Positions 32,300 through 57,329 of a stretch of DNA of 64,000 nt are shown here, piece after piece; within the stretch, counting starts at the first letter, position 1; every line of letters starts with the position of its first letter. Both the position numbers and the translations under genes were made by a program. Below the pieces are notes generated by a model. The model saw only the letters and a list, made by a program, of their open reading frames with translations. It did no database searches and had not been told where the DNA came from. Source of the DNA: Acidimicrobiia bacterium (GTDB lineage Bacteria > Actinomycetota > Acidimicrobiia > IMCC26256 > JAGPDB01); NCBI GenBank assembly GCA_018057765.1, contig JAGPDB010000002.1:32138-96137 (forward strand). The letters are read 5' to 3'.

Positions 32300-32791
32300 A
32301 TGCCAAGTTTTGATGTTGTTAGCGAAGTTGATATTCAAGAGGTAAGAAATGCTGTCGATCAAACTGCTCGAGAAGTCGGTACTAGGTTTGATTTTAAAGG
32401 TACCGAATCAAAAATCGAGTTTGATGGAAAAGGTGAAATATCAATTAATTCTGTATCTGAAGATAGAGTTAAAGCTATAATTCAAATCTTAGAAGAGAAG
32501 TTTGTAAAACGCCATGTTTCATTAAAATCGCTAGACCACCAGAATGGTGAAGAAGCTGCAGGTGCTCGTTGGAAACAAATTACTAAATTAGTTCAAGGTC
32601 TGACTACTGAAAAAGCAAAAGAAATAGGAAAATATATAAAAGAAAATGGTACAAAAGGATTGCAACACCAAATCCAAGGCGATCAACTTCGTATTACTGG
32701 TAAAAAGCGTGACGATTTACAGAATGCCATTGCAATGTTAAAAGAACATGATTTTGGAATTCCTTTACAATTTGAAAACTTTAGAGATTAA
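32300..32791 (+). CDS. yajQ: YajQ-family (UPF0234) nucleotide-binding protein
   Basis: 163 aa. Conserved N-terminus MPSFDVVSEVDIQEVRNAVDQTAREVGTRFDFKG. Has an AAGGAG RBS. Confidence 0.9.
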   Translation: MPSFDVVSEVDIQEVRNAVDQTAREVGTRFDFKGTESKIEFDGKGEISINSVSEDRVKAIIQILEEKFVKRHVSLKSLDHQNGEEAAGARWKQITKLVQGLTTEKAKEIGKYIKENGTKGLQHQIQGDQLRITGKKRDDLQNAIAMLKEHDFGIPLQFENFRD

Positions 32792-32893: not shown

Positions 32894-33967
32894 CTATACT
32901 TGGCGAACAGCACTGAGCACCTGAAAAGAACCCAATCCATTTTCATCTAAAAGTACTTCTCTTTCATTCATGAAACTTTTGGACATATCAACATCAGATC
33001 CATGAGTTGAAAATTGAATTAGTTGATCATATGAACTCTGGTGTTTCTGTGGAACACAAAATAAATCAATATCATTATCATTCAACCATTGGTTTTGTGT
33101 TTGTATCTTTATTTTGGAGAAACCTTCTCTATCAAGTAATACGTATAAATCATTACTTGTAACATCACAAGTGATGTCTCCTTTCTTGCCCTTTACTATT
33201 GCATTTAATACATTGTCAACGCCAACTATTCTTTGATTACTGGAATACATCCTTAACCAATTCTCATCTGCCATATCAGGTATTGCTTTAATATAATCAA
33301 AAAATAATAATTGTAAATCAGTTACATTCATTGTGGCCTGCATAAGTTCATCTATCCACGAAGCTAAACCAACGTGTAAAGGTATTCTAAAATCTCCAAT
33401 ATTATGTGCAACATTAGATCGTGAAAGGTTATCTATATCTCCCGATATTCCAAAAAATGCTGCATACGCTGGTTTGTCAAGATAATCTGGCTCAAAGTTT
33501 GAATACACTTCGCTAACCTTGCCGATATTAAAAATTAGATTATCTAAAAGTTCATTTGCAATTACTAAGGTAGGCTTGTCACACTCTGGAATAGTTCCAT
33601 GGACTGACCAAGAGAATTTAGGTGACAATTTACTTAATTTTTCAGTTACAGCTGCTCTATGTTTCGCAGATATATCAACAAGATAAAATTCTATTTCACT
33701 TGCGTTTTTCATATTAGCCCTAGAAATAGATGCAGCCAATGAGCCCGGCCCACAACCAGCATCAATAACTATTGCCCCACTTGGATTTTTTAGATTATCA
33801 TACCAATCATCAATATAATCAGCAAGGACACGACCAAACAAGTCGCCAACTTCTGGTGACGTTAAAAAATCTTTAGTACGCCCCGAACCTCCACCTTTAG
33901 TATAAAAACCATCGTCACCGTAAAGTACCTCTTGCATATAATCTGCAAAATTATTTTCAATGTCCAT
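32894..33967 (-). CDS. MidA/NDUFAF7-like (DUF185) SAM-dependent methyltransferase. A homologue of the mitochondrial complex I assembly factor 7.
   Basis: The DUF185 signature DFLTSPEVGDLFGRVLADYID. The class I MTase glycine-rich loop VIDAGCGPGSLAASI. 357 aa. Sits immediately downstream of nuoN of the first nuo operon. Confidence 0.75.
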   Translation of the reverse strand: MDIENNFADYMQEVLYGDDGFYTKGGGSGRTKDFLTSPEVGDLFGRVLADYIDDWYDNLKNPSGAIVIDAGCGPGSLAASISRANMKNASEIEFYLVDISAKHRAAVTEKLSKLSPKFSWSVHGTIPECDKPTLVIANELLDNLIFNIGKVSEVYSNFEPDYLDKPAYAAFFGISGDIDNLSRSNVAHNIGDFRIPLHVGLASWIDELMQATMNVTDLQLLFFDYIKAIPDMADENWLRMYSSNQRIVGVDNVLNAIVKGKKGDITCDVTSNDLYVLLDREGFSKIKIQTQNQWLNDNDIDLFCVPQKHQSSYDQLIQFSTHGSDVDMSKSFMNEREVLLDENGLGSFQVLSAVRQV

Positions 33968-34019
33968 TTACAAAGTCTAATGTGAATAACAAGGCCTGTA
34001 AGGACAGTCCCTCTATCCT

Positions 34020-35591
34020 CTATTTTACTAGGACTATTAATTCACCGACTCTGGCAATAATTCCGGGAAAGAAACCGAGCAAAATTGTAACTCCAGCACA
34101 TAATACTATCGCTACTCGAAGTGCTGGAGTTATTACGACAGTAGATTTTTTATCAGCCAACAAAAGAGATCCTTCACTCGTCTCTGGCTGATCAAATAAA
34201 TCTAATTCAGCTGGGTCTTCAAGCCACATGCGCTTTATAATTCCTGCATAATATGTAAATGCAACAACTGAAGTTACAGCTGCAACAATAGCGAGAGTAA
34301 TAGAAGCTACAGAATTGATTTCCAATGCTGCTTTAAACATCACAAATTTTGCAAACCAACCAGCCAAAGGTGGAACACCAGCTAAAGAAAATAAGAAAAT
34401 TGTCAACATTAGAGACAAGAAAGGTTCACGTCTTCCTAGACCATTATATTTTGCTATATCGCCAGAATTAATTCGTCGAGAAATTGCAATAATGCTCGCA
34501 AAGGCTCCTAAGTTAGCGAATAAATAAATCGCTAAATAAATATAAGTTGATTGAACTGCGCTGTTAAAAAATTCATTAGTTCCCAAGGTCGACGTTTTTG
34601 AATTATCGCCATAACCCAATAAAGCAATTGGCAATAAAATAAATCCACCTTGAGCAATTGAGGAATACGCTAACATGCGAACAATATTTGTTTGTTTTAA
34701 TGCAGCAAAGTTTCCGATAATTAAAGATGCTACAACCATTACTGACAGTATTGGCATCCAAATTTCTCTTTCATTTAAAAATGCATACTGGCCTAAAGCT
34801 AAGATACCGACAAAACCAGCACCCTTTGAAAGTACACTTAAAAATGCAGTAACTGGTGTAGGTGCCCCTTCATATACATCTGGTGTCCATTGATGAAAAG
34901 GAACTGAAGAAATTTTGAAAGCAAAACCAATTACGGTAAAGATCACTGCTAAGTGAGCCAAAATAGGGATGTTGTTGCCATAAAAATATTTTTGAATATC
35001 AACAAATTTTGTTGAACCTACAAAACCAACGACAAAGCTCATCCCATAGAGCATTATTGCAGAACTCATAACACCAATTAAATAATATTTTATTCCAGCC
35101 TCATTAGATTTAAGATCACGTTTTCGCCAAGATGCCAAGACGAATGTTGGAATAGTAACAGTCTCGATAGAAACAAATAGAGAGATCAAATCTCGCGACG
35201 ATGAAAGGGTGCTCATACCCAATACTGACATTGTAAGCAAGAACCAAAACTCGGCCTGGAAATAATCTCCTTCGCGAATATAATCCCCACTTAGTAGCAC
35301 GGAAATATACGCACCAACTAAAAAGAATGCTTTAAAAGCCAGCGCTTGATTATCAACAATGTACGAACCGCCAAACATTGATCTGTTTGTTCCATCAATA
35401 GCTAAAGTTATTACTGGAATCAATGCCACTAAAAAAGTTAATGCAGCTATATTTGATGTTTTCCATGATGAACGTTTCTTTAAGAAAAGATCAGCAATCA
35501 AAATTGTTAATGCACCAATTATAATAACGACTTCTGGCGCAAATGCGTGCCAGTCAATCATTGGCGATTTCTGTATAACTATAGCTAACAT
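34020..35591 (-). CDS. nuoN: NADH-quinone oxidoreductase subunit N (cluster 1)
   Basis: A 523-aa polytopic antiporter-like subunit. Last gene of the 11-gene nuo array. Confidence 0.85.
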   Translation of the reverse strand: MLAIVIQKSPMIDWHAFAPEVVIIIGALTILIADLFLKKRSSWKTSNIAALTFLVALIPVITLAIDGTNRSMFGGSYIVDNQALAFKAFFLVGAYISVLLSGDYIREGDYFQAEFWFLLTMSVLGMSTLSSSRDLISLFVSIETVTIPTFVLASWRKRDLKSNEAGIKYYLIGVMSSAIMLYGMSFVVGFVGSTKFVDIQKYFYGNNIPILAHLAVIFTVIGFAFKISSVPFHQWTPDVYEGAPTPVTAFLSVLSKGAGFVGILALGQYAFLNEREIWMPILSVMVVASLIIGNFAALKQTNIVRMLAYSSIAQGGFILLPIALLGYGDNSKTSTLGTNEFFNSAVQSTYIYLAIYLFANLGAFASIIAISRRINSGDIAKYNGLGRREPFLSLMLTIFLFSLAGVPPLAGWFAKFVMFKAALEINSVASITLAIVAAVTSVVAFTYYAGIIKRMWLEDPAELDLFDQPETSEGSLLLADKKSTVVITPALRVAIVLCAGVTILLGFFPGIIARVGELIVLVK

Positions 35592-35594: not shown

Positions 35595-37109
35595 TTATGC
35601 TCCAAAAAGTGCAGCAACTGGTGTTGCGAAATATTTGAATAGTAAATCTGGATAAACACCAAATATAAAAATTGGTATCAATATTGGGGTCCAAGCAAGC
35701 CATTCACTTATATGAACGTCATGGATTTCTTTATCTTTAAACTCGTCATTAACTTCACCAAATGCAACTCTTTGGAACATCCACAATAAATAGGCGGCAG
35801 CTAGAACTGTACCAACGGCAGCAACGACCATGTAGAACCTAAATAGAGGAACACTTAAACCAGGAGCAGGACTAAAGGCACTCAATACTGCTGGAAATTC
35901 TCCCCAGAAGCCAGCCAAGCCAGGAAGGCCAAGTGAAGCCATACAGCAAAGACCGAACAACCAACCCATCTTTGGAATTTGTTTTAGCATACCACCAAGT
36001 CGTGACATTTCACGTGTGTGATATCTGTGTTGAACAGAACCACCAATAAAAAACAACATACCAGTAATTAGACCGTGTGCAAACATTCCAAACAAGGCTG
36101 CATTCATACCGAATTCAGTTCCTGTTGAAATAGCCAACATAACAAAACCCATATGGGCAACTGAAGAAAATGCAATCAAACGTTTCATATCGCTTTGTGC
36201 CAAACAACATAGGGAACCATATATAATACCTATCACTGCCAGACCACCGATATATGGTGACCATGAAGTAAATGCCTTTGGCAATATTGGAATAGCGATC
36301 TTAATAAAACCGTATGTACCAAGCTTTAGCAAAATAGCAGCAAGTATAACTGAACCCTGTGTTGGAGCTTCAGTATGAGCATCTGGTAGCCAAGTATGAA
36401 ACGGGAACATAGGCACTTTAATCGCAAAACCAAGGAACAATCCGCCAAATATTATTAAGCCAGTAGTCTTTGCAATATTTAGCTGACCTGATTGGGCCAT
36501 TGCTGTCAATTCTGGAATTGAGAAGGTATGGCCTCCCTTAAAGAATAGCGCTAAGAAACCTAGAAGCATCATGGCAGAACCGAATAGTGTGAACAAGAAA
36601 AATTTGAGTGAGGCGTATTTACGATTCGAACCACCCCAAACACCAATTAGAAAGAACATTGGAAGTAAAACGATTTCGAAGAAAACAAAGAATAAGATTA
36701 GATCTTGAGCGACGAAAGTACCGTTCATTCCGACTTCTAATAAAAGTGTCATTGCTAGAAATGCTTTTGGAGTCCGCGGGTCTGGGAAATGATCCCAAGA
36801 ATATATGATTACAGATAAGGTAATAAGCATTGAAAGAATCAGCATTGGCAAACCAATACCATCTAGTCCAATTTCGTAGCGAGCATTAATAAGTGGTATC
36901 CACGCTTTATTTCGACCGAACTGTAAGCCTTCTTGGCCAATATTATATCTCACTAATATAGCTATACCTACACCTAGAGTTGCTATTGCTGTACCTAAAG
37001 CAATGGATTTAGCCACCACCTCATTTTTTTTAGGTGTCAGTAAAACACCTACCATTCCAGCTAGTGGAATGAATACTGCCAATGTGAGAGAGATTTTGTC
37101 GAAGTTCAC
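35595..37109 (-). CDS. nuoM: NADH-quinone oxidoreductase subunit M (cluster 1)
   Basis: 504 aa. Mrp-antiporter-like. Positioned between nuoL and nuoN. Confidence 0.85.
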   Translation of the reverse strand: MNFDKISLTLAVFIPLAGMVGVLLTPKKNEVVAKSIALGTAIATLGVGIAILVRYNIGQEGLQFGRNKAWIPLINARYEIGLDGIGLPMLILSMLITLSVIIYSWDHFPDPRTPKAFLAMTLLLEVGMNGTFVAQDLILFFVFFEIVLLPMFFLIGVWGGSNRKYASLKFFLFTLFGSAMMLLGFLALFFKGGHTFSIPELTAMAQSGQLNIAKTTGLIIFGGLFLGFAIKVPMFPFHTWLPDAHTEAPTQGSVILAAILLKLGTYGFIKIAIPILPKAFTSWSPYIGGLAVIGIIYGSLCCLAQSDMKRLIAFSSVAHMGFVMLAISTGTEFGMNAALFGMFAHGLITGMLFFIGGSVQHRYHTREMSRLGGMLKQIPKMGWLFGLCCMASLGLPGLAGFWGEFPAVLSAFSPAPGLSVPLFRFYMVVAAVGTVLAAAYLLWMFQRVAFGEVNDEFKDKEIHDVHISEWLAWTPILIPIFIFGVYPDLLFKYFATPVAALFGA

Positions 37110-37128: not shown

Positions 37129-39273
37129 TTATCTACTTATAAAAATTATTATTGCACTTAAAACTAATACACCACTAAATAAAAATATTGCATAACGTTG
37201 TAGTTTTCCGCTTTGAACTTTTGTTAAAACCGAACCTGTTCCTTGAGAAGTTGAAGCTAAACCATTTACGATCCCGTCAACACCTTTTTGATCAATTTTC
37301 TCGTAAGTAAACGTACCAATTTTTGCAGTAATTTTACCTACGCCATTAACAAAAGCGTTAATTATATTGTCGTTAGTCCAAAGAACAGCATTAGAGATTT
37401 GCTTTTTAAGTCCACCAACAATTATGTCAGTGTAAAGAACATCTAAGAAATATTTCTTTTCTAAAAATGTGTATCCTGCCTTAGCGATTTTGCTTTTTTT
37501 AGTTAAATCAATAAAGCCGATTTTTTTCCAATAGTAAAGATAAGTAACTAAAATACCAAACAGTCCACATGCAGTAGCAATACCAGCATCTATCCAAGAA
37601 AATTCAGCATGAGATATAAACGCACCTGCACCTTGGACTAATCCCTCTAATGGAAACGCTCCTTTAGGTTCAACCCATTCTTTAAATTTCTCAATACCAA
37701 ACGGTGTAGCATTTAATAGTCCTGCAAAAATTGAGAATATCGCCAAGATTATTAAAGGAATTGTTATAGCTTTAGGCGATTCGTGCGGGTGATGATGTCC
37801 TCTATATTCACCGAAGAAAGTTAGATAAACACAACGTGTCATATATGCAGCGGTCAATATAGCACCTGCTAGACCAACATAAACGAAAAATTGATAACCA
37901 TTATGGCCAACGTTTGCCAAGATTTCATCTTTTGACCAGAAACCAGCAAATGGGAATATGCCAGCAAGCGCTGCAGTACCAATCATGAAAGTAGTAAAAG
38001 TTACTGGCATCAATTTACGAAGCCCACCCATATCTTTTTTCATTTCAAAAGAATGATGAGATCCACTATGTGCGACAGATCCTGCGCCTAAGAATAATAA
38101 AGCTTTGAAAAATGCGTGTGTAAATAGATGGAATACTGCAGCTACCCAAGCGCCAGATCCAAGCGCCATAACCATATAGCCAAGTTGTGAAATTGTTGAA
38201 TATGCCAATACTTTTTTGATATCACTTTGCACAAAGGCCAAAACAGCACCAGCGATAATAGTTATACCACCAATAAGAATCATAGGATTCAAACCAGTTT
38301 CACCAATATTGAAACCTTCCCAAAAGATAGGAAAAACGCGAGCACCAAGATAAACACCAGCAACAACCATAGTTGCAGCATGGATAAGCGCAGAAACAGG
38401 AGTTGGACCAGCCATAGCATCAGGCAGCCAAGTATGTAGAGGAAATTGTCCCGACTTGCCCATGATACCTAGCAATAGGGCAAGAGCCGTCATAAGTATT
38501 AATGTGTGACCAACTTTTCCAGAAAGGGCAGCATTATTAATTGAAAGAATTGAGAAAGATCCAGAACCAGTTGCACGTTGCACGATAAAGAATGTCATTA
38601 CAACACCAGTTAATAACCCAATATCACCAAAACGAGTAGTGAAGAAAGCTTTTAGGGCAGCATTTGAATTTTCTTTTTCTTCCCACCAATGCCCAATGAG
38701 CATAAATGAACATAGTCCAACGAGTTCCCAACCGAGCAACAATTGCAAAGTATTACTTGCAACTATAAGCATCATCATTGAAGCTGTAAAAAGAGATAGC
38801 GCTGCATAATAATGCGTATATCTAATATCACCTTTTAAATATTCAGTCGAATAGATATGTACGAGTGTAGAAATTACACCTACAACAATTAACATCATTA
38901 CTGCAAGGCCATCAATCTGAGTACCAGCTTCTAGTTTTAAAACACCAAAACGTAACCAAGTATAAGCCTGACCATAAACTTTTGACTCGTCAGCAAAATT
39001 TATCCATTGATAAGCAGCCATTATTGCATAAGCTAAAACAGCTACCAATGCAGTAATGCCAATTTCATGCCCTCCTTTTGGAAGTTTCTTACCAAAAAAT
39101 AAAATCAAAAAGAAACTAACGAGAGGAATTAAAACTATCAGCCAAGCATGTGTTAAAAACCAAGGACCTTGTGAACTTAATGAAGTAATCTTTTCACCTA
39201 AGTGATGTGCGCCTTCAGCTGACTCGCCTTCTCCACCTTGCAAAAGGTTAGTTAACAATATAGAACTAATCAT
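37129..39273 (-). CDS. nuoL: NADH-quinone oxidoreductase subunit L (cluster 1), long form of 714 aa
   Basis: Antiporter-like core plus a C-terminal long horizontal helix/TM. Follows nuoK. Confidence 0.85.
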   Translation of the reverse strand: MISSILLTNLLQGGEGESAEGAHHLGEKITSLSSQGPWFLTHAWLIVLIPLVSFFLILFFGKKLPKGGHEIGITALVAVLAYAIMAAYQWINFADESKVYGQAYTWLRFGVLKLEAGTQIDGLAVMMLIVVGVISTLVHIYSTEYLKGDIRYTHYYAALSLFTASMMMLIVASNTLQLLLGWELVGLCSFMLIGHWWEEKENSNAALKAFFTTRFGDIGLLTGVVMTFFIVQRATGSGSFSILSINNAALSGKVGHTLILMTALALLLGIMGKSGQFPLHTWLPDAMAGPTPVSALIHAATMVVAGVYLGARVFPIFWEGFNIGETGLNPMILIGGITIIAGAVLAFVQSDIKKVLAYSTISQLGYMVMALGSGAWVAAVFHLFTHAFFKALLFLGAGSVAHSGSHHSFEMKKDMGGLRKLMPVTFTTFMIGTAALAGIFPFAGFWSKDEILANVGHNGYQFFVYVGLAGAILTAAYMTRCVYLTFFGEYRGHHHPHESPKAITIPLIILAIFSIFAGLLNATPFGIEKFKEWVEPKGAFPLEGLVQGAGAFISHAEFSWIDAGIATACGLFGILVTYLYYWKKIGFIDLTKKSKIAKAGYTFLEKKYFLDVLYTDIIVGGLKKQISNAVLWTNDNIINAFVNGVGKITAKIGTFTYEKIDQKGVDGIVNGLASTSQGTGSVLTKVQSGKLQRYAIFLFSGVLVLSAIIIFISR

Positions 39274-39275: not shown

Positions 39276-39575
39276 TTAACCCTTCAACTTATCTAATTCA
39301 TCAAGATTTGGAGATTTCTTGTTACGAGCAATAAGTAAAACTAAACCTAAGCCTACGCATATTTCAGCTGCAGCAATAGTAATTACAAATACTGCAAAAG
39401 TATTACCAACAACGTTTTGTGAAAATTGTGAAAAAGCAATAAGGTTTAAGTTCACTGCATTAAGCATCAACTCAATACTCATTAAGACCAAGATTCCATT
39501 CTTTCTTGCAATAATCCCATACATCCCACAAGAAAAAAGAAACGCGCTAACTATTAAAATCATATTAATTTGCAT
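39276..39575 (-). CDS. nuoK: NADH-quinone oxidoreductase subunit K (cluster 1)
   Basis: 99 aa, 3 TM helices. Conserved Glu-containing helices (ELMLNAVNL). Confidence 0.85.
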   Translation of the reverse strand: MQINMILIVSAFLFSCGMYGIIARKNGILVLMSIELMLNAVNLNLIAFSQFSQNVVGNTFAVFVITIAAAEICVGLGLVLLIARNKKSPNLDELDKLKG

Positions 39576-39576: not shown

Positions 39577-40095
39577 TCAGTCCTTCCTCGCTAAAACAAC
39601 CGCGCCAATTAAAGCTGCTAAAAGCAAAACTCCGACTAACTCAAAGGCAAAGACATTATCGAAAATGAGTGAATTGCTTAATGCATCCATACGGCCATTT
39701 GCTAAAGTACTATTCACACTTGTACCACTGATTGCAATTTTCTCCTTATTATCAAATGCCTTAATAATAAGAGTTGATATTAATGCGAATGTTGCTAACG
39801 ATACTATATAAGCAGGTATACGATTTTTATTATCTAAATCTTCGTTATCTCCCATAGGTGAGCGAGTTAACATTATGCCGAATAGCAAAAGTACCATTAC
39901 TGCACCTATGTAAATAAGTATCTGGACCCAAGCCAAAAATTCTGCAGCAATCAATAAATATATTCCAGCTATCGCACCCAAAACAGCTACTAAATATAAT
40001 GCAGCATGGACAATATTTGGTGTACGTACAACTGCAAAGCCACCTACACAAGCAACAATGCTTAAGAGAACAAAAATTACATTCTGTACTATCAT
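39577..40095 (-). CDS. nuoJ: NADH-quinone oxidoreductase subunit J (cluster 1)
   Basis: A 172-aa hydrophobic subunit between nuoI and nuoK. Confidence 0.8.
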
Positions 40096-40643
40096 TTTTT
40101 CTTCTTTACTTTTGCAGGAATTGCGCCTGCTTCAAGAGGCTCTGGCTCAGGTATTGTATCCATCCAATCAAAAAGTGTTTGTTTTTGGTGCAACAAATTA
40201 GCAATACGAAATTCACTATATTCAAATTCTGGTGACCAAAAAAGTGCATCGAAAGGACAAACCTCAACACAGATTCCACAATACATACAAAGGCTATAGT
40301 CAATGTCGAAACGATCCAAAATATTAACGTTACGTTCTTTACCACCTTCACGTCGAGGTGGTGCTTTTGTTTTATGTCCTTCAATATAGATACACCAGTC
40401 TGGGCAAGATCTAGAACATAACATACAAGCTGTGCAGTTTTCTTCGGAAAGAGCAATAACACCACGCGCACGTGGGGCAACTTCTTCTTTTTCATGAGGA
40501 TACTGAATAGTTACTGCAGGTTCCATCATTGTACGGAAAGGCACAGTTAAACCCTTGACCACACCTGGAATCTTTGGCTTTTTACTTTTTTTAGGTTTAT
40601 CACTCATATAAATCCTTCCGTTAATTCCAGACCATGAAAGCAC
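40092..40643 (-). CDS. nuoI: NADH-quinone oxidoreductase subunit I (cluster 1), a 2x[4Fe-4S] ferredoxin-like subunit
   Basis: Two CxxCxxCxxxCP motifs ([12 protein letters not shown] and [12 protein letters not shown]). Confidence 0.9.
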
Positions 40644-41667
40644 CAGTAACCAAAATATTTAATACTGATATTGGTATTAAATATTTCCATGCAAGGCTTT
40701 GAAGTTGGTCTTCTCTAAATCGCGGATAAGTAAATCGGGCCCAGAACATCAAAAATGCAATCAACATAATTTTTGTAAATAAAACTAGTGGTCCCAAAAA
40801 TTTCATATAGCTAGCGTCGAGTGGCACTCCTGGTAGTGACCATCCACCTAAAAATAATGTTGCCGAAATTGCTGAGAATGCAAAAGCGGTACCAAATTCA
40901 GCCATGAAGAAGAATAAGAATCTAAAACCTGTGTACTCAACCATATAGCCACCAACGAGTTCTGACTCAGCTACAGGCATATCAAATGGAGGCTGTGTTA
41001 ATTCTGCTTGTGAAGCAACCATGAACAATCCAAAACCAACAAACTGAGTTAAAATAAATGGATTACCTATTGCATGCAAACCAAAAATTGAACCTTCGTG
41101 TTGTGCTGCAACTATACCTTGTAAGTCTGCAGTACGTGCTTGCATAACAACACCTACAACAGCTAAAAGCAATGGAAGTTCATAGGCAATTAATTGAGCA
41201 GCAGCACGCAAAGCACCTAGTAAAGCAAACTTAGAAGCACTTGCCCACCCAGCCATCAAAACACCAATAACGCTTAATGATGAAACAGCCAGCGCATAAA
41301 AAACTCCAACATTTAAATTTCGTACTTGAAGATCAGGACCAACAGGAATAACGATATAAACCAAAAAGGTAGACATCAAAATAACAATAGGTGCCATTGC
41401 GAAAACTTTTTTATCAGCATCTTCTGGCATGATATCTTCTTTTTGCAAGAATTTTATACCGTCACCAACAAGTTGGAACCAACCATGAAATCCACCTGGG
41501 TCCATAGGACCTAAACGTGATTGCATATGACTCATCATTTTTAGAAGGAATACATAACCAAGAATTAAAGCACCTGCAGGGATAGTTCCTAAGACTATTG
41601 CAGTTTTAATTGCAGCTGTCCAGCCCCAACCTATCTCTAGAGCAAAAGTTACACCATGAGAAATCAT
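40621..41667 (-). CDS. nuoH: NADH-quinone oxidoreductase subunit H (cluster 1)
   Basis: Start MISHG (ATG at 41665-41667), overlapping the nuoD stop as ATGA, with a GGGAG RBS. Conserved MQSRLGP motif and 8 TM helices. Confidence 0.85.
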
Positions 41668-42842
41668 CTGTCTATATCTCCCAAAATAAAATATAATGAG
41701 GCAAGAATTGTCACAATATCTGGAACATAAACACCTTTTAATAACCATGGGCAAATTGAAACATTAGAAAAAGATGCAGATCTTATTTTCACACGGAAAG
41801 GTCCCGTAGATCCTTTTGAATATATATAGTAACCCATTTGACCAAGAGGGTTTTCTGTTTCAACCCAAACTTCACCTTCTGGAACTTTAATAATCAATGG
41901 AACTTTGGTCATGATTGCACCACTTGGTAATTTGTCAATAAGTTGTCGAACCATATTTATTGATTCACGTGTTTCTTGCAAGCGCACCCAATAGCGAGAG
42001 AATGAATCTCCATCGGGATGAGTCCAAACTTTAAAATCTATATCGTCATAAGCTAAATATTTTTGTCCATCGCGACGTAAATCCCAATCAACACCGCTAG
42101 CTCGAATATTTGAACCACTAACTCCGTATTTCAAACCCATCTCTTTGGTTATGATTCCAACACCACGTGTGCGAGCTTGAAAAATCTCGTTTTCCATTAC
42201 CAATCGTTCAAAATCATCAATAGATTTTTCACAAATATCCAAAACTCGTTTACACTCACTAGTCCAGCCCCATGGTAAGTCATTATATAGACCACCTATG
42301 CGGTTAAAGTTTGGATGAAAACGTCCACCAGTAACGGCTTCAATTAAGTTGACAACATATTCACGATCACGAAAACCATAAAATGCAGGTGTAATTGCAC
42401 CGACTTGTAATCCCATCTCACCTAAAAATAATAGAAATGTAGAAATACGAGAAAGTTCTGTCAGTATTGTCCGCAAATATTCTGCACGTGGAGGGGCTTC
42501 TACTCCCAAAAGTTTTTCTGCGCCGTTAATAAATGGAACTTCATTTGCAAAGGAACTCAACCAGTCAATACGGTTAATTAAAGTAGTAATTTGTGGATAT
42601 GTTCTGTATTCGGTGAGTTTTTCGTAACCTCTATGCATGTAACCAATAACAGGATCTGCAGCAATAACTCTTTCACCATCAAGTCGCACAACTAATCGCA
42701 AAGTACCATGAGTAGCTGGATGCTGTGGACCCATGTTTAGAATCATGTCGCCATTATCTAATTCTAGGTTTAATTTTGCATTAGAAATATCACCAAGTTG
42801 TGATGGGTCTACTTCAATCATATCTGAGGTGTTTTTAGTCAT
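41664..42842 (-). CDS. nuoD: NADH-quinone oxidoreductase subunit D (cluster 1)
   Basis: 392 aa. NMGPQHPATHGTLRL and the 49-kDa subunit fold. Directly followed by nuoH with no nuoEFG between. Confidence 0.9.
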   Translation of the reverse strand: MTKNTSDMIEVDPSQLGDISNAKLNLELDNGDMILNMGPQHPATHGTLRLVVRLDGERVIAADPVIGYMHRGYEKLTEYRTYPQITTLINRIDWLSSFANEVPFINGAEKLLGVEAPPRAEYLRTILTELSRISTFLLFLGEMGLQVGAITPAFYGFRDREYVVNLIEAVTGGRFHPNFNRIGGLYNDLPWGWTSECKRVLDICEKSIDDFERLVMENEIFQARTRGVGIITKEMGLKYGVSGSNIRASGVDWDLRRDGQKYLAYDDIDFKVWTHPDGDSFSRYWVRLQETRESINMVRQLIDKLPSGAIMTKVPLIIKVPEGEVWVETENPLGQMGYYIYSKGSTGPFRVKIRSASFSNVSICPWLLKGVYVPDIVTILASLYFILGDIDR

Positions 42843-43528
42843 TATTCTTTAACCTCCGGCATAGCCTCAACATCTGTAAGGCCTGGCCATGGTTTTACAA
42901 CTCGTGCAAGTAGTGGAAAATCTTTTCTTAAAGGAAAGCCTTCAAATTCACCTGGTAAATATAAATGTCGAATTTCGGGATGACCTATAAAATCTATACC
43001 GTACATTTCCCATGTTTCACGTTCGTGCCAATCTGCTCCAGGAAATACATCAACAAAAGATGCGACACTAAAATTCTTAGTGTCGTTAGGATCATCACAA
43101 ACATCAACTTTGATTGTTATACCAAAATGTTTTGTTGTTGATTGTACATGTGAGAAAACTTGAAAACGAGTTTCTCCACCACCAACACCAACAGTTTGTT
43201 CTTTTGGTTGAGTCGGTTGTGCTGCTTCGCGATTAAAATCATCTTCGTTTACCGGCATCGGCATAAAATCTATTGCACTGACAAAAGACAAGAAGTCGCA
43301 ATCTAATTCTTCGTTTGTTATCTTCGCGGCCTTTGCATAACCAGCTTTTGTAACACGAATGATCAAATCACCATGATTCGATTCAAGTTGTAATAATTCT
43401 TTACCGAAGGCTTCTTTAACAGATGCAATTAATGTTTCTGATGGAGCATTTGTAGCCGAAGTCTCAATAGAAGACTGAGAGACTGAGCCAGCTTGTCGAA
43501 TCACGTCATCGGTAGAATCAACCATCAT
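42842..43528 (-). CDS. nuoC: NADH-quinone oxidoreductase subunit C (cluster 1)
   Basis: A 228-aa 30-kDa subunit with an N-terminal Ser/Thr-rich extension. Confidence 0.85.
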
Positions 43529-44154
43529 GCACCTGTCTTTGATGTAATCGCAACTGGAACTTCTTCTGTATTTTGATTGTATCGGGGTGTCGCAGCCGTT
43601 GCTACTGGCATAATTTTTCGTCCAGTAAATTCACCTAGTGTAGGCTTTCCTAAAAATCTATTCTGTAATTCGTCATTGTCAATACCTTCAAGTTGAATTC
43701 TCTCTTGCAACATTGTTACAGCCTGAATTAAAGCTTCTGGCCGAGGAGGGCATCCTGGTATATAAACATCGACTGGCAATATTTGGTCAATTCCTTTTGT
43801 GACGGAATACGAATCCCAATATGGACCACCGCTGTTAGCGCACGCACCCATTGAGATAACATATTTTGGATCAGGCATCTGTTCGTATAATCGAACAATT
43901 GCAGGAACCATTTTGTCTGTGACTGTACCAGATATCACAACCAAGTCAGCTTGACGAGGAGATGCTGGAAATGGAATTACTCCAATGCGCATCATGTCAT
44001 ATCGGGGTGATGCTAATGCCGCACCCATTTCTATTGCGCAACAAGCTAGCCCCCATTGAAACATCCACAGTGAATATTTTCTCGAATAATTCAATAACCA
44101 AGTTAACGGTTTGATCTTTTTGCCGTTTAGTAAACCTTTGTCGACTACGCCCAT
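43525..44154 (-). CDS. nuoB: NADH-quinone oxidoreductase subunit B (cluster 1)
   Basis: N2 cluster ligands [17 protein letters not shown] and GCPPRP. Confidence 0.9.
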
Positions 44155-44576
44155 TTAAGTAATCCTTTGCGCCAGTCATACGCGAGACCAACAAATAATA
44201 CGACTAGAAAAATCGCCATGGCATTAAAACCAAAAACACCAAGTCCTTCAACATTTAAAGCCCATGGAAAAACAAATATTGCTTCAACGTCGAAAATAAC
44301 AAATAATAATGCAAATATATAATATCTAATATTGCTTTGGCCTAGACCACCAATTGGATCTGATCCTGATTCATAAACTTTATATTTTTGTTTTGCACTA
44401 ACGTTAGGCCTTAGCAATTTCGCCATACCCAACATTGCGCCAACCATGCCCATTGCAGCAAACATAAATATAGCTACAGATAGATAGTTGCGGTAATATT
44501 CGGTCATGGGGTTCGAACTAATTTTACTTGTGGCTATATTAGCTATTGTGGCGATTTGATGATTGAAACTAAACAT
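44145..44576 (-). CDS. nuoA: NADH-quinone oxidoreductase subunit A (cluster 1). The probable true start is MTEYY at 44507.
   Basis: 3 TM helices and a conserved [12 protein letters not shown] segment. Overlaps the nuoB start. Confidence 0.8.
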
Positions 44577-45960: not shown

Positions 45961-46869
45961 TTGATACAATTTGCATTTATCAATAGATCATTTAAGAGCA
46001 AAGCAAAAATTATTGATACATTTAATATTAGAATGTTGATGATGCATTTATTTAAGAAGAAAAAACCCAAATTAAAGGCTTTCGTGCTTTCGGGTGGAGC
46101 AAATATGGGTTGTGCCCAAGTTGGTATGCTGCAAGCCTTATTTGAACATGGTATTTATCCAGACCTACTTATAGGTACATCAGTTGGTGCACTTAACGCT
46201 GCTGCTCTCGCAACAAACCCTACAATCAGTGGAATTTCTGATTTGACTGAATTCTGGAAAAATATTAAAACCGGCGATGTATTCCCTGGTGGATCTTTTA
46301 CTAGAGCTTGGAATTTACTCAAAAGAGATTTATACCTTGTAGAAAATACCGGATTATCAAAAGTAATTGATAGAGCTACAAGAGTACGAGAGATTGAAGA
46401 TTTACAATTACCCATAAGAATTGTCACATGTGATTTAACCACCGGAGAAGAAATCATATATTCAAAAGGCCCACTTAAAGAGGCATTATTAGCAAGTGCT
46501 GCACTACCAGGAGTTTTTCCACCTATAAAACACGATGGCAGAATATTAGTTGATGGAGGTGTGGTTAACGCTGTACCAATTTGGCATGCAATAAGTGAAG
46601 ACGTTGGAGAAATATATGTATTAAATGTTTCCGGATCTTCACCAATAAAAAATCTAAGGACACCATTAGATGTTATTACTAGGTCTTTCTCAATTTCACG
46701 CTCTCAAAGATTCGATACGGAACTGCGTGAAGCCAAACATAATATAAAAGTATTTCATATGCCTCGACCAATTGATAGAAGAGATATGTATGACTTTAGT
46801 AATAGTGAAATACTAATGGAAGAAACTTATAAGCAGTCTTTTGCGTTTTTGGATGCACATCGCTTATAA
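45961..46869 (+). CDS. Patatin-like phospholipase. The probable start is around 46033-46042.
   Basis: An oxyanion/Gly-rich loop FVLSGGANMG, a nucleophile elbow GTSVGALNAA (GxSxG) and a DGG catalytic Asp (VDGGVVNAVP). Confidence 0.85.
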   Translation: MIQFAFINRSFKSKAKIIDTFNIRMLMMHLFKKKKPKLKAFVLSGGANMGCAQVGMLQALFEHGIYPDLLIGTSVGALNAAALATNPTISGISDLTEFWKNIKTGDVFPGGSFTRAWNLLKRDLYLVENTGLSKVIDRATRVREIEDLQLPIRIVTCDLTTGEEIIYSKGPLKEALLASAALPGVFPPIKHDGRILVDGGVVNAVPIWHAISEDVGEIYVLNVSGSSPIKNLRTPLDVITRSFSISRSQRFDTELREAKHNIKVFHMPRPIDRRDMYDFSNSEILMEETYKQSFAFLDAHRL

Positions 46870-48339
46870 AACGTTAGTAAACCCAGTTAGTAGTGATGGG
46901 AAAACACCTATAGCAACTGTGATAAATACGCAGACGCCTATAGCTATTGAAGTTGGCTTCGGAACAATATTTGCTTTCACATCAATTACTTTTTCGGTAT
47001 CATGATTAAAAGAATCAGAGTACATTGAAAGAATTAGTTTTAAATAGAATGCTGCACTTATAACAGTTGCAATTAATACAATTAATGATGTTATATAAAA
47101 TTTTGAATCTAACGCAACTCTAAACACTTCGAATTTTGCAATAAATCCACTTGTTAAAGGAATACCAGCTTGAGCTAATAAAAATACTGTTAAAGAGCCT
47201 GCTATATAAGGATTAGTCTTAGCTAAAGCGTTGATTGAAAGTATTGAATCATTTTGTTCATTTGGTGTACTCAAATAGCCTATAACTAAATATGTTCCTA
47301 CAATAATAAATCCATATGCAATTACATATGTAATTACAGGACCTAAAGCCAATGATCCACCTGATTTCATAGCCAATAAAATATAGCCCGTATGTGAAAT
47401 CGAAGAATATGCAATAGCACGTTTAATATTAGATTGCTTTAAGGCAACTGTAGCTCCAAAAATTGCAGAAGTTAAACAAGCGAGTGTTAATAAAACGCGT
47501 CCAGAGGGTCCATTGATTCCTGCATCTATAACGTTTGTTGACACAAGCCGTGCAAAAACTACAAAAGCTGCCAGTTTTGTTGAAGCTGACATAAAAGTGG
47601 TTATGGGTGAAGGCGCCCCTTGATATGCATCAGGAGACCAAAAATGAAAAGGGAAAGCTGCGACTTTAAAAAGTAAACCAACACTTAGCAATACCATTGA
47701 AACATTTGCTAGTGAAGAATTCTCGGCAACTCCAACTAAAGCTGTTGAACCTGTTAATCCATAATGTAAAGCTACACCATATAAAAAGATTGCTGATGAA
47801 ACAGCTCCCATTATAAAGTATTTAAATCCTGCTTCTAATGATCGCAGACGTCGAGCATCATATGCTGTTAAAACATATAAAGGAATAGAGAAAGTTTCTA
47901 AAGCTATAAATATTGCTACTAAATCATTCGCCATAACAAATGCGAACATTCCTAAAATAACAATTTGTAACAAGATGAAAAATTCTCCAGCTGGTATATC
48001 TTTTCTTGATTTTAAATAAGACGATGCACTCAAAGATACAAGTATAGAGATTAACGAAATGACTAATATTGAAATAACGCTAATACGGTCGGTACTTACT
48101 AGGCCATTGAGAGTTAATAGATCTTTCTTTCCCAGAAGTCCTTGATCAAATTTTCTCCATCTAGCTAGTTGAGAAATAACTACAATCGAACTTGCACTAA
48201 TAGTTGAAATAACTCCAACTCTTCTATGCAAATTATAATTAGTTCTTATTAATGATCTAAAAAGTGTCAACGAACAAATACTTATAACAAAAATTATAAG
48301 TGGAAAAAGTCCGTTGAAGTTAACGTCACCAATATTCAT
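46864..48339 (-). CDS. nuoN: NADH-quinone oxidoreductase subunit N (cluster 2)
   Basis: A 491-aa antiporter-like subunit. Last gene of the 14-gene operon. Confidence 0.85.
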   Translation of the reverse strand: MNIGDVNFNGLFPLIIFVISICSLTLFRSLIRTNYNLHRRVGVISTISASSIVVISQLARWRKFDQGLLGKKDLLTLNGLVSTDRISVISILVISLISILVSLSASSYLKSRKDIPAGEFFILLQIVILGMFAFVMANDLVAIFIALETFSIPLYVLTAYDARRLRSLEAGFKYFIMGAVSSAIFLYGVALHYGLTGSTALVGVAENSSLANVSMVLLSVGLLFKVAAFPFHFWSPDAYQGAPSPITTFMSASTKLAAFVVFARLVSTNVIDAGINGPSGRVLLTLACLTSAIFGATVALKQSNIKRAIAYSSISHTGYILLAMKSGGSLALGPVITYVIAYGFIIVGTYLVIGYLSTPNEQNDSILSINALAKTNPYIAGSLTVFLLAQAGIPLTSGFIAKFEVFRVALDSKFYITSLIVLIATVISAAFYLKLILSMYSDSFNHDTEKVIDVKANIVPKPTSIAIGVCVFITVAIGVFPSLLTGFTNVL

Positions 48340-49865
48340 TTTGACTCTCCAGAATGTATAGATTTAGAAATTTGTGTAGTTGTTTTATGAACTGAAGGGT
48401 TTATGCGATCTAACATATATTGAGGCACTAGTCCTAAAAATAAACTCATCAATAAAAGTGGTACTACGACAACTATTTCTCTAAAAGAAAGATCTTTCAT
48501 CTTTTTTGCTAGAGCATTTGGTTCACCAGTGAATATTCTCTGGTATGCCCATAATAGATATAGTGCTGCGAATATAACGCCAGTTACAGCAATGACTGTA
48601 TAGAAACGTGCGGAATTAAATGCACCTAACATGCTCAGGAATTCTCCAACAAAACCAGAAAAACCAGGTAAACCAATTGAAGCAAATGTAGCAATCAAAA
48701 ACGCTCCGCTCAACACTGGCACAGTTTTCATCAGTCCAGAATAATCAGCGATTTTCCTTGTATGGGTTCTGTCATACATCATACCCACTATTGCAAATAA
48801 GGCACTAGTAGTCAAACCGTGACTGACCATTGTAAATGTTGCTCCCGAGATACCAAGTTCGGTAAATGAGAAAATACCTAAAACTACAAAACCCAAATGA
48901 GCAATAGATGAATACGCAATAAGCCTTTTGAGATCAGGCTGCATTGTTGCAACGATTGCACCATATATAATTCCAATAACAGCAACAGTTAAGAATATCC
49001 ATCTGAGTTGATGAGCGGCTGACGGGAAAAACGATACTGCAATTCTCAAGAATCCATAGGTTCCAAGTTTAAGTAAAAGACCTGCCAATATTATTGAACC
49101 AGCTGTAGGTGCCTCTGTGTGGGCATCTGGCAGCCAGGTATGTAATGGGAATAAAGGAACTTTTACTGCGAAAGCAATGGCGAATCCAGCAAATAGCCAG
49201 AGTCCAACAGATCCAGAAACATTATTTACGCTATACACACGCAGTTGTTCGATATCAAAACACCATGTACCAGTACTACCATGTCGCATTGCTGCAATGG
49301 TCAACATCGATGCCAAGAAAAATACTGATCCACCCATGGTGAATAAGAAAAACTTCATTGAAGCTTTCTTTGCGTTTTCATGCCCAAAACCAAGAATGAG
49401 AAAATACATTGGGATAAGAACTAATTCAAATCCAATAAAGAAAACGAAAATATCTCTTGCTACAAAAACAGTAATAATTGCTGCTTCTAAGAATAATAGC
49501 CATGCAATAAATGAACGCTCATTATTTTTGATACTTTTAGAAGCCAATATCGCTAAAGGAAAAAGGAAAACACTTAAAGCAACTAGAAAAACACTTAAAC
49601 CATCAACGCCTAACGAAAAATTGATTCCTAAATCTTTGATCCATGTGTAAGATTCTTTCGCTTGTATATTTGAAACTGATTTAAATGCATATACAAGATA
49701 TATACCTAAACCTAACGCAGCACTAGTAAATACTAAACCAAGCATACGAGCAAGACCAGCTTGCGCTTTACTCAAAAGTGCAACAACTATTGCGCCAATT
49801 AAACAAATGCCAATCATTGAACTTAATATAGGAAAATTCATACTATTAATTTGTGCAAAAATCAT
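48336..49865 (-). CDS. nuoM: NADH-quinone oxidoreductase subunit M (cluster 2)
   Basis: 509 aa. Overlaps its neighbours by 4 bp. Confidence 0.85.
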   Translation of the reverse strand: MIFAQINSMNFPILSSMIGICLIGAIVVALLSKAQAGLARMLGLVFTSAALGLGIYLVYAFKSVSNIQAKESYTWIKDLGINFSLGVDGLSVFLVALSVFLFPLAILASKSIKNNERSFIAWLLFLEAAIITVFVARDIFVFFIGFELVLIPMYFLILGFGHENAKKASMKFFLFTMGGSVFFLASMLTIAAMRHGSTGTWCFDIEQLRVYSVNNVSGSVGLWLFAGFAIAFAVKVPLFPLHTWLPDAHTEAPTAGSIILAGLLLKLGTYGFLRIAVSFFPSAAHQLRWIFLTVAVIGIIYGAIVATMQPDLKRLIAYSSIAHLGFVVLGIFSFTELGISGATFTMVSHGLTTSALFAIVGMMYDRTHTRKIADYSGLMKTVPVLSGAFLIATFASIGLPGFSGFVGEFLSMLGAFNSARFYTVIAVTGVIFAALYLLWAYQRIFTGEPNALAKKMKDLSFREIVVVVPLLLMSLFLGLVPQYMLDRINPSVHKTTTQISKSIHSGESK

Positions 49866-51823
49866 CTAGAAACACCTACAGACACTATTAAGACCATTAC
49901 AAATGTTGCACAAGATATCAATAATACATACCGTCGTAAATACCCACTTTGTATTTTACGAAATGACTCACCAGCTCTATTGGTAACAGTAGCCAAAGAC
50001 ATAACACTTCGATCAACAATATTGGTATCAAACGAACATAATAAATTAGAGAATCTAACTCCGATTGTTGAAACTAATTTTGCAATAGATATATTTACGT
50101 ACCAAGCATTTTGTGTCACAGACAAGAAGCCACCAAGTGATTCCAATGGTTCATCATCAACATTTATTGGTCTGGTTCTATATTTGTATATGCCAAAAAT
50201 GATTCCACATATTGCTAGTACAAGTGAGATACCTGCCAATATCAACCCTTTGCTTTCATCAAAACTTGCTGCTATTTGAGAAGGCGCACCTTCTATTGCT
50301 GGTTCTAAAAATTTCGTGAAATCCTCACGTGCATGTGTAGGAAAATTGAGGAAACCGATAACTGCAGCAAAGAAACTCAAAACAATTAGTGGGATTGTCA
50401 TAGTTTTTGGAGATTCATGAGGCTTATGTTCGACTTCACCATATCTTGCTTTACCAAAAAATACCATCCGAACTTGTCTTGTCATATAAAAAGCAGTCAA
50501 CAGTGCAGTAATTAAACCAACAAACCATAAAGAGTAACCAAGCACACCACCACTAGCGAAAGCAGCACCTAGAATTTCGTCTTTCGAAAAGAAACCTGCA
50601 AAAGGGAATACACCCGCAATTGCTAACCAACCAATTATAAAAGTAATAGAGGTAATAGGTAATAGCTTCTTTAAACCACCCATAAATCTCATATCTTGTG
50701 CATCAAAATTTTTCTCATGCCCTGGTCCGTGCATTGCATGAATTACAGATCCTGAACCTAAGAATAAAAGAGCCTTAAAAAATGCGTGCGTTACTACATG
50801 AAATATCGCACCTGAATAAGATCCAACTCCAATAGCTAGAAAGGTATAGCCCAATTGCGAAACTGTTGAATAAGCAAGAACACGTTTAATATCGTTTTGT
50901 GCCAATGCACATGTTGCAGCATATAGAGCAGTTAAAACACCTACAATTGCAATTACATGACTAACCCATGGTGATGAACTCCCGATCAAGGGTGAAACTC
51001 GCACCATCAAATAGACACCTGCAGTAACCATGGTTGCAGCATGAATCAATGCTGAAACTGGTGTTGGCCCTTCCATTGCATCAGGTAACCAAATATGTAA
51101 TGGAAATTGTGCACTCTTACCCATTGCGCCAATAAATAATAATAAAATTATCCATGTTGCGCTTGTAGAGTTTACATTTGAACTCTTTTCTAAAATATCG
51201 CTATATGTAAGTGAACCCAAACTAGGTGTTGCAACAATAAGAAACATAGCAAGCATAAAGCCCACATCACCAACTCGGTTTGTCACAAATGCTTTTTTAC
51301 CCGCTACTGCGGCGCTGTTTTTTTCAAACCAGAACGAGACAAGAAGATAAGAACAAAGACCTACACCTTCCCATCCTAAAAATGTTACTAATAAATTATT
51401 CCCCAATACCAAGGTGAGCATTGAAGCAGCAAAAAGATTTAGATAACCAAAGAATCTAGAAAACCTAACATCGCCTTTCATATAACCAATTGAATATAAG
51501 TGAATCAATGACGCTACAAAGGTAATGAAACCAACCATTATAATCGATAGAGGGTCAACCATAAACCTTAAATCTATTTGAAAATTACCAACGTGCATCC
51601 AAATGTATCCATCGCTAGAAAATCTTCTAACTCCATCGCCAGATACATTATGAATAGCTAAGAATGCAATAACCCAAAATATGAAGGTCGAACTCATAGC
51701 TAAGGTTGCCAGAACACCAGAAAATAATGGTTTAAATCTTTTTCCAAAAAGTAAAATAAAAATTGAACTAAGTAGTGGAACTACAGGTATAAGCCACGAA
51801 TATTTCAACACTTCTACATTCAT
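49862..51823 (-). CDS. nuoL: NADH-quinone oxidoreductase subunit L (cluster 2)
   Basis: 653 aa with a long C-terminal helix. Confidence 0.85.
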   Translation of the reverse strand: MNVEVLKYSWLIPVVPLLSSIFILLFGKRFKPLFSGVLATLAMSSTFIFWVIAFLAIHNVSGDGVRRFSSDGYIWMHVGNFQIDLRFMVDPLSIIMVGFITFVASLIHLYSIGYMKGDVRFSRFFGYLNLFAASMLTLVLGNNLLVTFLGWEGVGLCSYLLVSFWFEKNSAAVAGKKAFVTNRVGDVGFMLAMFLIVATPSLGSLTYSDILEKSSNVNSTSATWIILLLFIGAMGKSAQFPLHIWLPDAMEGPTPVSALIHAATMVTAGVYLMVRVSPLIGSSSPWVSHVIAIVGVLTALYAATCALAQNDIKRVLAYSTVSQLGYTFLAIGVGSYSGAIFHVVTHAFFKALLFLGSGSVIHAMHGPGHEKNFDAQDMRFMGGLKKLLPITSITFIIGWLAIAGVFPFAGFFSKDEILGAAFASGGVLGYSLWFVGLITALLTAFYMTRQVRMVFFGKARYGEVEHKPHESPKTMTIPLIVLSFFAAVIGFLNFPTHAREDFTKFLEPAIEGAPSQIAASFDESKGLILAGISLVLAICGIIFGIYKYRTRPINVDDEPLESLGGFLSVTQNAWYVNISIAKLVSTIGVRFSNLLCSFDTNIVDRSVMSLATVTNRAGESFRKIQSGYLRRYVLLISCATFVMVLIVSVGVSR

Positions 51824-52152
51824 TATTCACCTACCTTTACAGAAGACTCGCGCATTAAAGAAATTTCGTCTGGACTCGTACCAGATTTAGTTCGTTTAAA
51901 AATTGCTACTAATAATGCCAAGCCAACTGCTACTTCACCAGCAGCAACTACCAAGGTAAAGAATGTTGCAACTTGGCCAGCAACATCATCTAGCATCTTT
52001 GAGTATGCAACAAAAGTTAGATTTGCAGCATTAAGCATTAGTTCAATACTCATAAACATTACAATTGCATTTTTGCGAATTGAAACACCTGCTAAACCAA
52101 CACAAAAAATAATTGCAGCTAAAAATAAAAAATGAGATTCTGTTATGTTCAT
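51823..52152 (-). CDS. nuoK: NADH-quinone oxidoreductase subunit K (cluster 2)
   Basis: 109 aa. ELMLNAANL. Confidence 0.85.
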   Translation of the reverse strand: MNITESHFLFLAAIIFCVGLAGVSIRKNAIVMFMSIELMLNAANLTFVAYSKMLDDVAGQVATFFTLVVAAGEVAVGLALLVAIFKRTKSGTSPDEISLMRESSVKVGE

Positions 52153-54685: not shown

Positions 54686-54687
54686 GA

Positions 54688-57327: not shown

Positions 57328-57329
57328 TT

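Follow-up and report, generated by a model that had tools for sequence, protein, structure and literature searches.

A MidA-family methyltransferase gene behind an 11-subunit nuo operon in Acidimicrobiia and a candidate target arginine in the linked NuoD

In mitochondria, the methyltransferase NDUFAF7, a member of the DUF185/MidA family, is required for the symmetric dimethylation of Arg85 of NDUFS2 and for an early step of complex I assembly (PMC3829151; review PMC9006661). What would a gene of this family be doing directly behind a bacterial nuo operon that has no genes for an NADH module? The question is raised by a 64,000-nucleotide stretch of an Acidimicrobiia genome (contig JAGPDB010000002.1, positions 32,138 to 96,137; hereafter the window), the minus strand of which carries two complete nuo operons arranged head to tail and ~2.3 kb apart. 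One is a 14-gene nuoA-N operon. The other consists of nuoA, B, C, D, H, I, J, K, L, M and N, contiguous on one strand; because nuoD directly adjoins nuoH, nuoE, nuoF and nuoG are absent. Immediately behind this second operon lies the gene for an S-adenosylmethionine (SAM)-dependent methyltransferase of the DUF185/MidA family. Gene order and a comparison of the paralogous subunits make some functional tie between the methyltransferase and the 11-subunit complex highly likely. The features on which the argument depends first are the following.

32894..33967, minus strand: SAM-dependent methyltransferase of the DUF185/MidA family, 357 residues (PF02636, profile match and AlphaFold2 fold)
33968..34019, minus strand: spacer of 52 nucleotides between nuoN and the methyltransferase gene
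33833..33871, minus strand: DUF185 signature DFLTSPEVGDLFG, residues 33-45; T36, S37, P38, E39, V40 and F44 are invariant in a 22-sequence alignment
33734..33769, minus strand: SAM-binding motif I VIDAGCGPGSLA, residues 67-78; G71, G73 and G75 are conserved

To establish which family the protein belongs to, we combined profile searches with a structure prediction. As a single sequence it scores 39.2 bits with PF02636 (Methyltransf_28, which is DUF185), for which the gathering score is 23.3, and the alignment covers only positions 1-105 of the 249 in the profile. Each of the 106 homologs retrieved by database search has a precomputed PF02636 match, and several of them are labeled "SAM-dependent MidA family methyltransferase" by the Joint Genome Institute (JGI). 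NCBIfam holds no specific model for the protein; it gave only sub-threshold matches to BioC and HemK, which we did not use. With phmmer, the only PDB sequences to match were the three solved DUF185 proteins, again in the N-terminal part. A profile of 22 homologs matched the same database over positions 4-299 of 338: the best match was the COG1565 protein of Burkholderia thailandensis (4f3n; 154.9 bits, E-value 2.9e-44, profile positions 6-299), followed by the DUF185 protein of Rhodopseudomonas palustris (1zkd; 118.9 bits, 2.6e-33) and MidA of Dictyostelium (5ztz; 113.9 bits, 8.4e-32). The AlphaFold2 model, built from 88 homologs, has a predicted local distance difference test score of 88.1 and a predicted template modeling (TM) score of 0.86, and it shows a predicted class I methyltransferase core joined to the DUF185 auxiliary domain. 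Foldseek placed DUF185/MidA structures at all of ranks 1-6 (5zu0, 5ztz, 4f3n, 4g67 and two chains of 1zkd; TM 0.58-0.64), and the next ranks were generic class I methyltransferases with a TM of ~0.35.

The family is recognized by three motifs, namely F-x-T-(A/S)-P-E, the SAM-binding GxGxG and (A/G)-N-E-x-x-D, and the methyltransferase carries all of them (DFLTSPEV, DAGCGPG and ANELLDN). T36, E39, G75, N138, E139 and D142 vary little or not at all across 88 sequences, and the TSPE, GxGxG and NE..D motifs align with those of 4f3n, 1zkd and 5ztz; the comparison with the MidA active site was made only at this level of motif conservation. Since the profile match runs nearly end to end, the predicted fold is confidently of the DUF185 type and the motifs are conserved, the protein is apparently a full-length and active member of the family. 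The initial annotation had assigned it to MidA/NDUFAF7 (DUF185) from its DUF185 signature. Both quoted motifs are there as described, and Pfam, profile and fold agree on the family, with no other class I methyltransferase family indicated. We also considered that the protein might be some other methyltransferase that resembles the Pfam model at its N-terminus by chance; this was ruled out by the fold search and by the profile, which matches 4f3n, 1zkd and 5ztz over the full length.

The same annotation had noted the 11-subunit operon directly upstream, in which each of the 11 genes was confirmed by Pfam or NCBIfam, and the 52-bp separation from nuoN on the same strand, with which the coordinates agree. 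In order to assess whether this arrangement extends to relatives, we inspected the context of six homologs with identities from 57% down to 23%. Five of the six have a same-strand nuo operon without nuoE, nuoF and nuoG (EFG-less) upstream, and in one homolog the start of the methyltransferase gene overlaps nuoN. A scan of one genome per species yielded 80 loci, all from Acidimicrobiia save some evidently mislabeled metagenome-assembled genomes; among these genomes, the homolog most similar to the methyltransferase is only 60% identical to it. When nuo genes were mapped around these loci with tblastn, nuoD-H-...-L-M-N was found directly upstream of the methyltransferase in each locus with sufficient upstream DNA, five loci being too short to judge. 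After removal of duplicates, a same-strand nuoN lies upstream in 81 non-redundant Acidimicrobiia loci, with nuoD and nuoH adjacent and methyltransferase identities of 23-61%. Between the stop codon of nuoN and the implied start of the methyltransferase, the gap has a median of 51 nucleotides; it is at most 150 nucleotides in 70 loci, 151-400 in three and >400 in eight. We argue for selection on the arrangement, because the short junction persists even where protein identity is down to 23-31% and the genes on the downstream side have been reshuffled.

Outside the class we used one genome as a control. The homolog in Rhodopseudomonas, which is 97% identical to the 1zkd-chain fragment used as query, sits between lgt and a Cu_oxidase_4 gene, far from nuo. 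Two 14-subunit operons of relatives showed no methyltransferase gene in the DNA available behind their nuoN. The nuo linkage is a conserved trait of the Acidimicrobiia clade and not of the DUF185 family as a whole.

Individual loci vary around this pattern. Members of the closest clade carry an extra small gene of the YCII family, on the same strand, in the nuoN-methyltransferase interval (L001 9663-9995; L004 9723-10007; L002 7703-8035). It overlaps the methyltransferase start in L004, and it is absent from the window and from L009. A minority of Ilumatobacter-like genomes have opposite-strand insertions before the methyltransferase (L031 4530-6793; L033 9156-10001; L083 1935-3152); the inserted gene product in L031 and L033 is Thr/Pro-rich with a peptidoglycan-binding-like C-terminus. 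Two loci, one of which is the chromosome of Aquihabitans daechungensis DSM 27986 (L086, with the gene order unchanged), have nuoD, nuoH and nuoN split across frames (L007 1093-3339 and 8490-9978; L086 952-3096), which reflects either long-read indel error or pseudogenization of the 11-subunit operon. The distant homolog in L089 (10001-11038; 26% identity) has groES/groEL and a luciferase-like gene upstream in place of nuo, and it keeps the downstream neighborhood of an M48 (htpX-like) peptidase, tuf, rpmG, secE and nusG. The 11-subunit operon of that genome was either lost or relocated.

At the junction in the window, the ATG of the methyltransferase (33967) follows the nuoN stop after 52 nucleotides on the same strand. 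We scanned positions 32000-35000 for promoters and terminators, a search that cannot prove co-transcription, and found no terminator-like site in the 52-nucleotide spacer and nothing above the shuffle expectation. As far as sequence can tell, the gene has the features of an operon member, namely the same strand, a short spacer, a terminator-free gap and a conserved arrangement. We infer that it is co-transcribed with nuo as the last gene of the operon.

If the enzyme acts as NDUFAF7 does, its target should be sought in NuoD, and the two operons of the window offer two paralogs for comparison. The relevant positions in NuoD and in its neighbor NuoB are these.

42630..42632, minus strand: codon for Arg71 of NuoD of the 11-subunit operon (IGYMHRGYEK), the equivalent of NDUFS2 Arg85 in mature mammalian numbering; the candidate target peptide for the methyltransferase is PVIGYMHRGYEKLTEY
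60361-60363, minus strand: codon for Thr107 of NuoD of the 14-subunit operon (IGYLHTGMEK), at the Arg85 position
43924..43926, minus strand: codon for Thr77 of NuoB of the 11-subunit operon (VISGTVTDK), mitochondrial-type, at the position of Thermus thermophilus Nqo6 Arg83
61604-61606, minus strand: codon for Arg74 of NuoB of the 14-subunit operon, aligned to Nqo6 Arg83
59323-60681, minus strand: NuoD of the 14-subunit operon
61247-61825, minus strand: NuoB of the 14-subunit operon

Arg71 falls on NDUFS2 Arg85 without gaps in an alignment with an 80-residue fragment (positions 21-75 against residues 46-100 of the 430-residue mature chains). All 47 of the methyltransferase-linked NuoD sequences that cover the region read HRG. 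The 14-subunit NuoD of the window has a threonine at this position, as do Nqo4 of T. thermophilus and NuoD of Mycobacterium smegmatis. The best PDB relatives of the 11-subunit NuoD are T. thermophilus Nqo4 and cyanobacterial NdhH, and NdhH also has HRG.

The arginine lies 3.7 Å from cluster N2 (PMC8042128), and its surroundings are known to follow an intersubunit switch, in which the threonine of Thermus Nqo4 is compensated by Arg83 of Nqo6, where Yarrowia NDUFS7 has Thr122 (Hameedi et al., PMC8042128). The same reciprocal switch separates the two operons of the window, with NuoD-Arg/NuoB-Thr in the 11-subunit complex versus NuoD-Thr/NuoB-Arg in the 14-subunit complex. Three related 14-subunit operons likewise have HTG in NuoD and AGR in NuoB. 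The generality of HTG/AGR is judged from a small sample, as a NuoG metagenome scan gave five loci that yielded these three operons, to which the window, T. thermophilus and M. smegmatis are added. By its predicted residues, the methyltransferase-linked complex is the one with a mitochondrial-type second sphere around N2, and it is the sole paralog to offer the known substrate residue.

A second position of the 11-subunit NuoD stands out. Trp94 (RIDWLSSF; codon 42560-42562) occupies the site of the quinone-binding tyrosine (bovine Tyr108, T. thermophilus Tyr87), and the tryptophan recurs in 47 of 48 methyltransferase-linked NuoD sequences (loci L001-L090), the exception being L026 (RMDY). The 14-subunit NuoD retains the tyrosine (RMDYASPL). 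The substitution suggests that the EFG-less complex differs in its quinone or acceptor site.

We consider it probable that the SAM-dependent methyltransferase, made together with the nuo operon, modifies Arg71 of NuoD before NuoD docks on NuoB. In such a scheme the enzyme would be produced alongside the Nuo subunits from the last gene of the operon. It would bind free NuoD and use SAM to methylate Arg71 of HRGYEK, the likely product being symmetric dimethylarginine as in mitochondria and Paracoccus, and NuoD would then dock on NuoB with Arg71 beside the iron-sulfur cluster N2. Because Arg71 is predicted to be buried at the NuoD-NuoB interface, the modification would have to precede assembly, and the methyltransferase would thus be an assembly or maturation factor. 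The 14-subunit complex would not need it, because its NuoD has a threonine at this position and its NuoB supplies the arginine. The initial annotation had read the protein as an assembly or modification factor of the 11-subunit complex and had suspected co-expression from the short spacer. Comparative evidence lends support to that reading: the gene neighborhood is conserved in relatives, and the arginine is confined to the linked one of the two NuoD paralogs.

Several observations weigh against methylation of Arg71. E. coli NuoCD conserves the arginine yet leaves it unmodified (PMC3750175), the function of prokaryotic DUF185 proteins has been described as inferred in silico only (PMC12455994), and no clear Shine-Dalgarno sequence precedes the ATG of the methyltransferase in the window. 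Furthermore, the Acidimicrobiia clade is divergent from MidA, with ~15% identity in the structural alignment, and the profile places it nearer to the uncharacterized Burkholderia COG1565 protein (4f3n) than to MidA itself (5ztz). This divergence would suit a methyltransferase that is tied to the 11-subunit complex and acts elsewhere, whether on a different site or subunit (NuoB or NuoC, for example) or in a non-catalytic, chaperone-like assembly role. The linkage evidence is silent on the residue, and in the clade an LLDPxGLGxF segment is conserved at the C-terminus, beyond the part that matches the solved DUF185 proteins. We nevertheless regard this alternative as unlikely: the arginine is the sole established substrate of the family (PMC3829151), the linked NuoD always keeps it where the unlinked paralog has lost it, and the intact SAM and signature motifs argue for catalysis. 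It is very improbable that the gene is decaying or codes for an inactive remnant such as a pseudo-enzyme. Although Pfam aligns just the N-terminal 105 positions of its model and a specific NCBIfam model is lacking, the open reading frame (ORF) is complete and can be aligned with its homologs over the entire length, the catalytic-type motifs are conserved, and both the confident full-length fold prediction and the profile match span nearly the whole DUF185 domain.

The gene order itself also admits a reading without a functional link, in which the arrangement is simply inherited and the enzyme has an unrelated cellular substrate, as proteobacterial homologs may have. DNA would be one such substrate, as Wolbachia MidA expressed in E. 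coli reportedly methylates DNA (PMC12455994). All linked loci come from one class, so the locus counts are inflated by shared ancestry, and they lie in a conserved region near tuf-rpmG-secE-nusG. The gap exceeds 400 nucleotides in 8 of the 81 loci, and the inspected ones hold genes, several of them on the opposite strand; as other genes separate nuoN from the methyltransferase in about a tenth of the loci, co-transcription is not obligatory. L089 retains the methyltransferase with no nuo within 10 kb upstream, and the Rhodopseudomonas homolog is located away from nuo. What speaks against inheritance alone is that the junction is tight, with overlaps in some loci, down to 23% identity among reshuffled downstream genes, and that the accompanying operon is in every case the EFG-less one, with the known target residue of the family in its NuoD. 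We therefore hold a purely inherited order to be rather improbable, and continue with methylation of NuoD as the preferred explanation.

How the enzyme compares with its characterized relatives bears on what is new. It shares with human NDUFAF7 and with MidA of Dictyostelium (5ZTZ/5ZU0) the PF02636 match, the two-domain fold, for which MidA is the top Foldseek match, the TSPE, GxGxG and NE..D motifs, and an associated NuoD with the equivalent of NDUFS2 Arg85. It differs from them in being bacterial and only ~15% identical in the structural alignment, in being encoded within a structural operon, and in being linked to a complex without the NuoEFG NADH module. The homologs of Alphaproteobacteria (R. 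palustris 1ZKD; Paracoccus) are bacterial members of DUF185 as well, and Paracoccus, in whose Nqo4 the same dimethylarginine occurs, provides the precedent for this modification in a bacterial complex I (PMC3750175). They serve, however, a 14-subunit NADH-oxidizing complex, and the Rhodopseudomonas gene keeps company with lgt and the YfiH-like Cu_oxidase_4 gene instead of nuo. The B. thailandensis COG1565 protein (4F3N/4G67) is both the best sequence-profile match and a strong fold match. A universal rule by which complexes with NuoD-Arg and NuoB-Thr need MidA was considered and rejected, since E. coli combines the arginine of NuoCD with a threonine in NuoB and does not modify the arginine.

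The 11-subunit complex resembles the "ancestral" complex I-like enzymes, such as Nuo11 of Desulfitobacterium (PMC11238625) and the NDH-1 of cyanobacteria and chloroplasts, which also consist of A, B, C, D and H-N without NuoEFG. It differs from these enzymes in the tryptophan that its NuoD has where the quinone-binding tyrosine is usual. We know of no report of a MidA-type gene in the operons of Desulfitobacterium Nuo11 or of cyanobacterial or chloroplast NDH-1.

The gene order of an 11-subunit nuo operon followed by NDUFAF7 is already listed in the literature for Candidatus Actinomarina. In the passages that describe it, the cluster comprises afuABC, a heliorhodopsin, the 11-subunit nuo operon, NDUFAF7 (K18164/PF02636), htpX, pspE and adenosine kinase (Bulzu et al. 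2021, bioRxiv 10.1101/2021.02.01.429150). There NDUFAF7 is termed an accessory component of the complex, and a 14-subunit operon lies close by. As far as these passages go, Candidatus Actinomarina and the window have in common the 11-subunit nuo operon with a PF02636/K18164 gene behind it and a 14-subunit nuo operon nearby, and they differ in that yajQ comes next in the window. To judge by its base composition and this layout, the window probably derives from a related lineage of Acidimicrobiia with low G+C. We looked for heliorhodopsin, afu and htpX beside the window operon and found none of them there. The passages on the cluster mention neither NuoD or NuoB residues nor conservation beyond that clade. 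Our literature search found no description of class-wide conservation, of a paralog-specific arginine with a reciprocal NuoB switch, or of the contrast with the alphaproteobacterial context.

The methyltransferase is a further member of a known enzyme family, encoded within the operon of an unusual complex I that lacks an NADH module. Because the family and its mitochondrial role are known, the gene order has been listed once before and automated annotation already names the family, the advance is incremental. For Acidimicrobiia, it consists of gene-order evidence that a bacterial MidA homolog belongs to a complex I-type enzyme. Since the linkage occurs beyond the Proteobacteria, in an enzyme that lacks the NADH module, the modification would be tied to the N2/quinone end of the enzyme and not to NADH oxidation. 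A wider proposal is tentative, and we put it below an even chance: MidA-type methylation of the N2-adjacent arginine of NuoD may be a trait of the ancestral NuoEFG-less complex I and no speciality of Proteobacteria or mitochondria, the Acidimicrobiia methyltransferase may be a fixed member of the operon, and the NuoD/NuoB switch may decide which of two co-resident complexes needs the methyltransferase. If this is true, the two paralogous complexes of each cell would be a natural internal control for the effect of the modification on N2 and on assembly. In mitochondria the loss of NDUFAF7 blocks assembly, so that catalysis cannot be studied separately; in Acidimicrobiia, one of the two neighboring paralogs has the target arginine and the other the Thermus-type switch, which makes a useful natural experiment. 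Cultured carriers include Ilumatobacter and Aquihabitans, in which the prediction is directly testable by mass spectrometry.

The remaining features of the two operons and their surroundings in this AT-rich window (G+C ~36%) are listed here. On the minus strand, the 14-gene operon (62286-46864) is followed by a patatin-like gene, an ORF of 405 residues and the 11-gene operon (44576-34020).

46864..62286, minus strand: 14-subunit nuoA-N operon, used as comparator
44145..44576, minus strand: nuoA of the 11-subunit operon (PF00507)
43525..44154, minus strand: nuoB of the 11-subunit operon, N2-cluster subunit with CC...C...C ligands (PF01058; NDUFS7 alignment)
42842..43528, minus strand: nuoC of the 11-subunit operon (PF00329)
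41664..42842, minus strand: nuoD of the 11-subunit operon, proposed substrate (PF00346, NF004739)
40621..41754, minus strand: nuoH of the 11-subunit operon (PF00146, aligned from residue 53)
40092..40643, minus strand: nuoI of the 11-subunit operon (Fer4 families)
39577..40095, minus strand: nuoJ of the 11-subunit operon (PF00499)
39276..39575, minus strand: nuoK of the 11-subunit operon (PF00420)
37129..39273, minus strand: nuoL of the 11-subunit operon (PF00361, PF00662, PF01010)
35595..37109, minus strand: nuoM of the 11-subunit operon (PF00361)
34020..35591, minus strand: nuoN of the 11-subunit operon, stop codon at 34020-34022 (PF00361, TIGR01770)
32300..32791, plus strand: yajQ (DUF520), convergent with the methyltransferase gene, marking the downstream end of the unit (PF04461, NF003819)

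The listed ORF of the 11-subunit nuoH starts with a TTG 91 nucleotides inside nuoD. This start is probably too far upstream, so the overlap of nuoD and nuoH is likely an effect of ORF calling, and the true start is probably the internal methionine in MISHGVTF.... Compared with the Pfam model, NuoC of the same operon carries an insertion of ~30 residues (residues 58-208 span profile positions 2-122), and in the 14-subunit NuoD an N-terminal extension of ~65 residues precedes the conserved core.

No candidate electron-donor module adjoins the EFG-less operon in the window. The 405-residue ORF (44716-45933, minus strand) lies 139 nucleotides upstream of the 11-subunit nuoA on the same strand and has no Pfam match. 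It occupies the site that heliorhodopsin holds in the cluster of Candidatus Actinomarina as given in the published passages, and its sequence is not rhodopsin-like. Three further ORFs are without a Pfam family, one of 572 residues (26678-28396, plus strand), one of 528 residues (22561-24147, plus strand) and one of 295 residues (24131-25018, minus strand); in their vicinity are a DsbD-like/thioredoxin-like pair (28407-30268) and a small cupredoxin of the sulfocyanin-like type (26030-26524).

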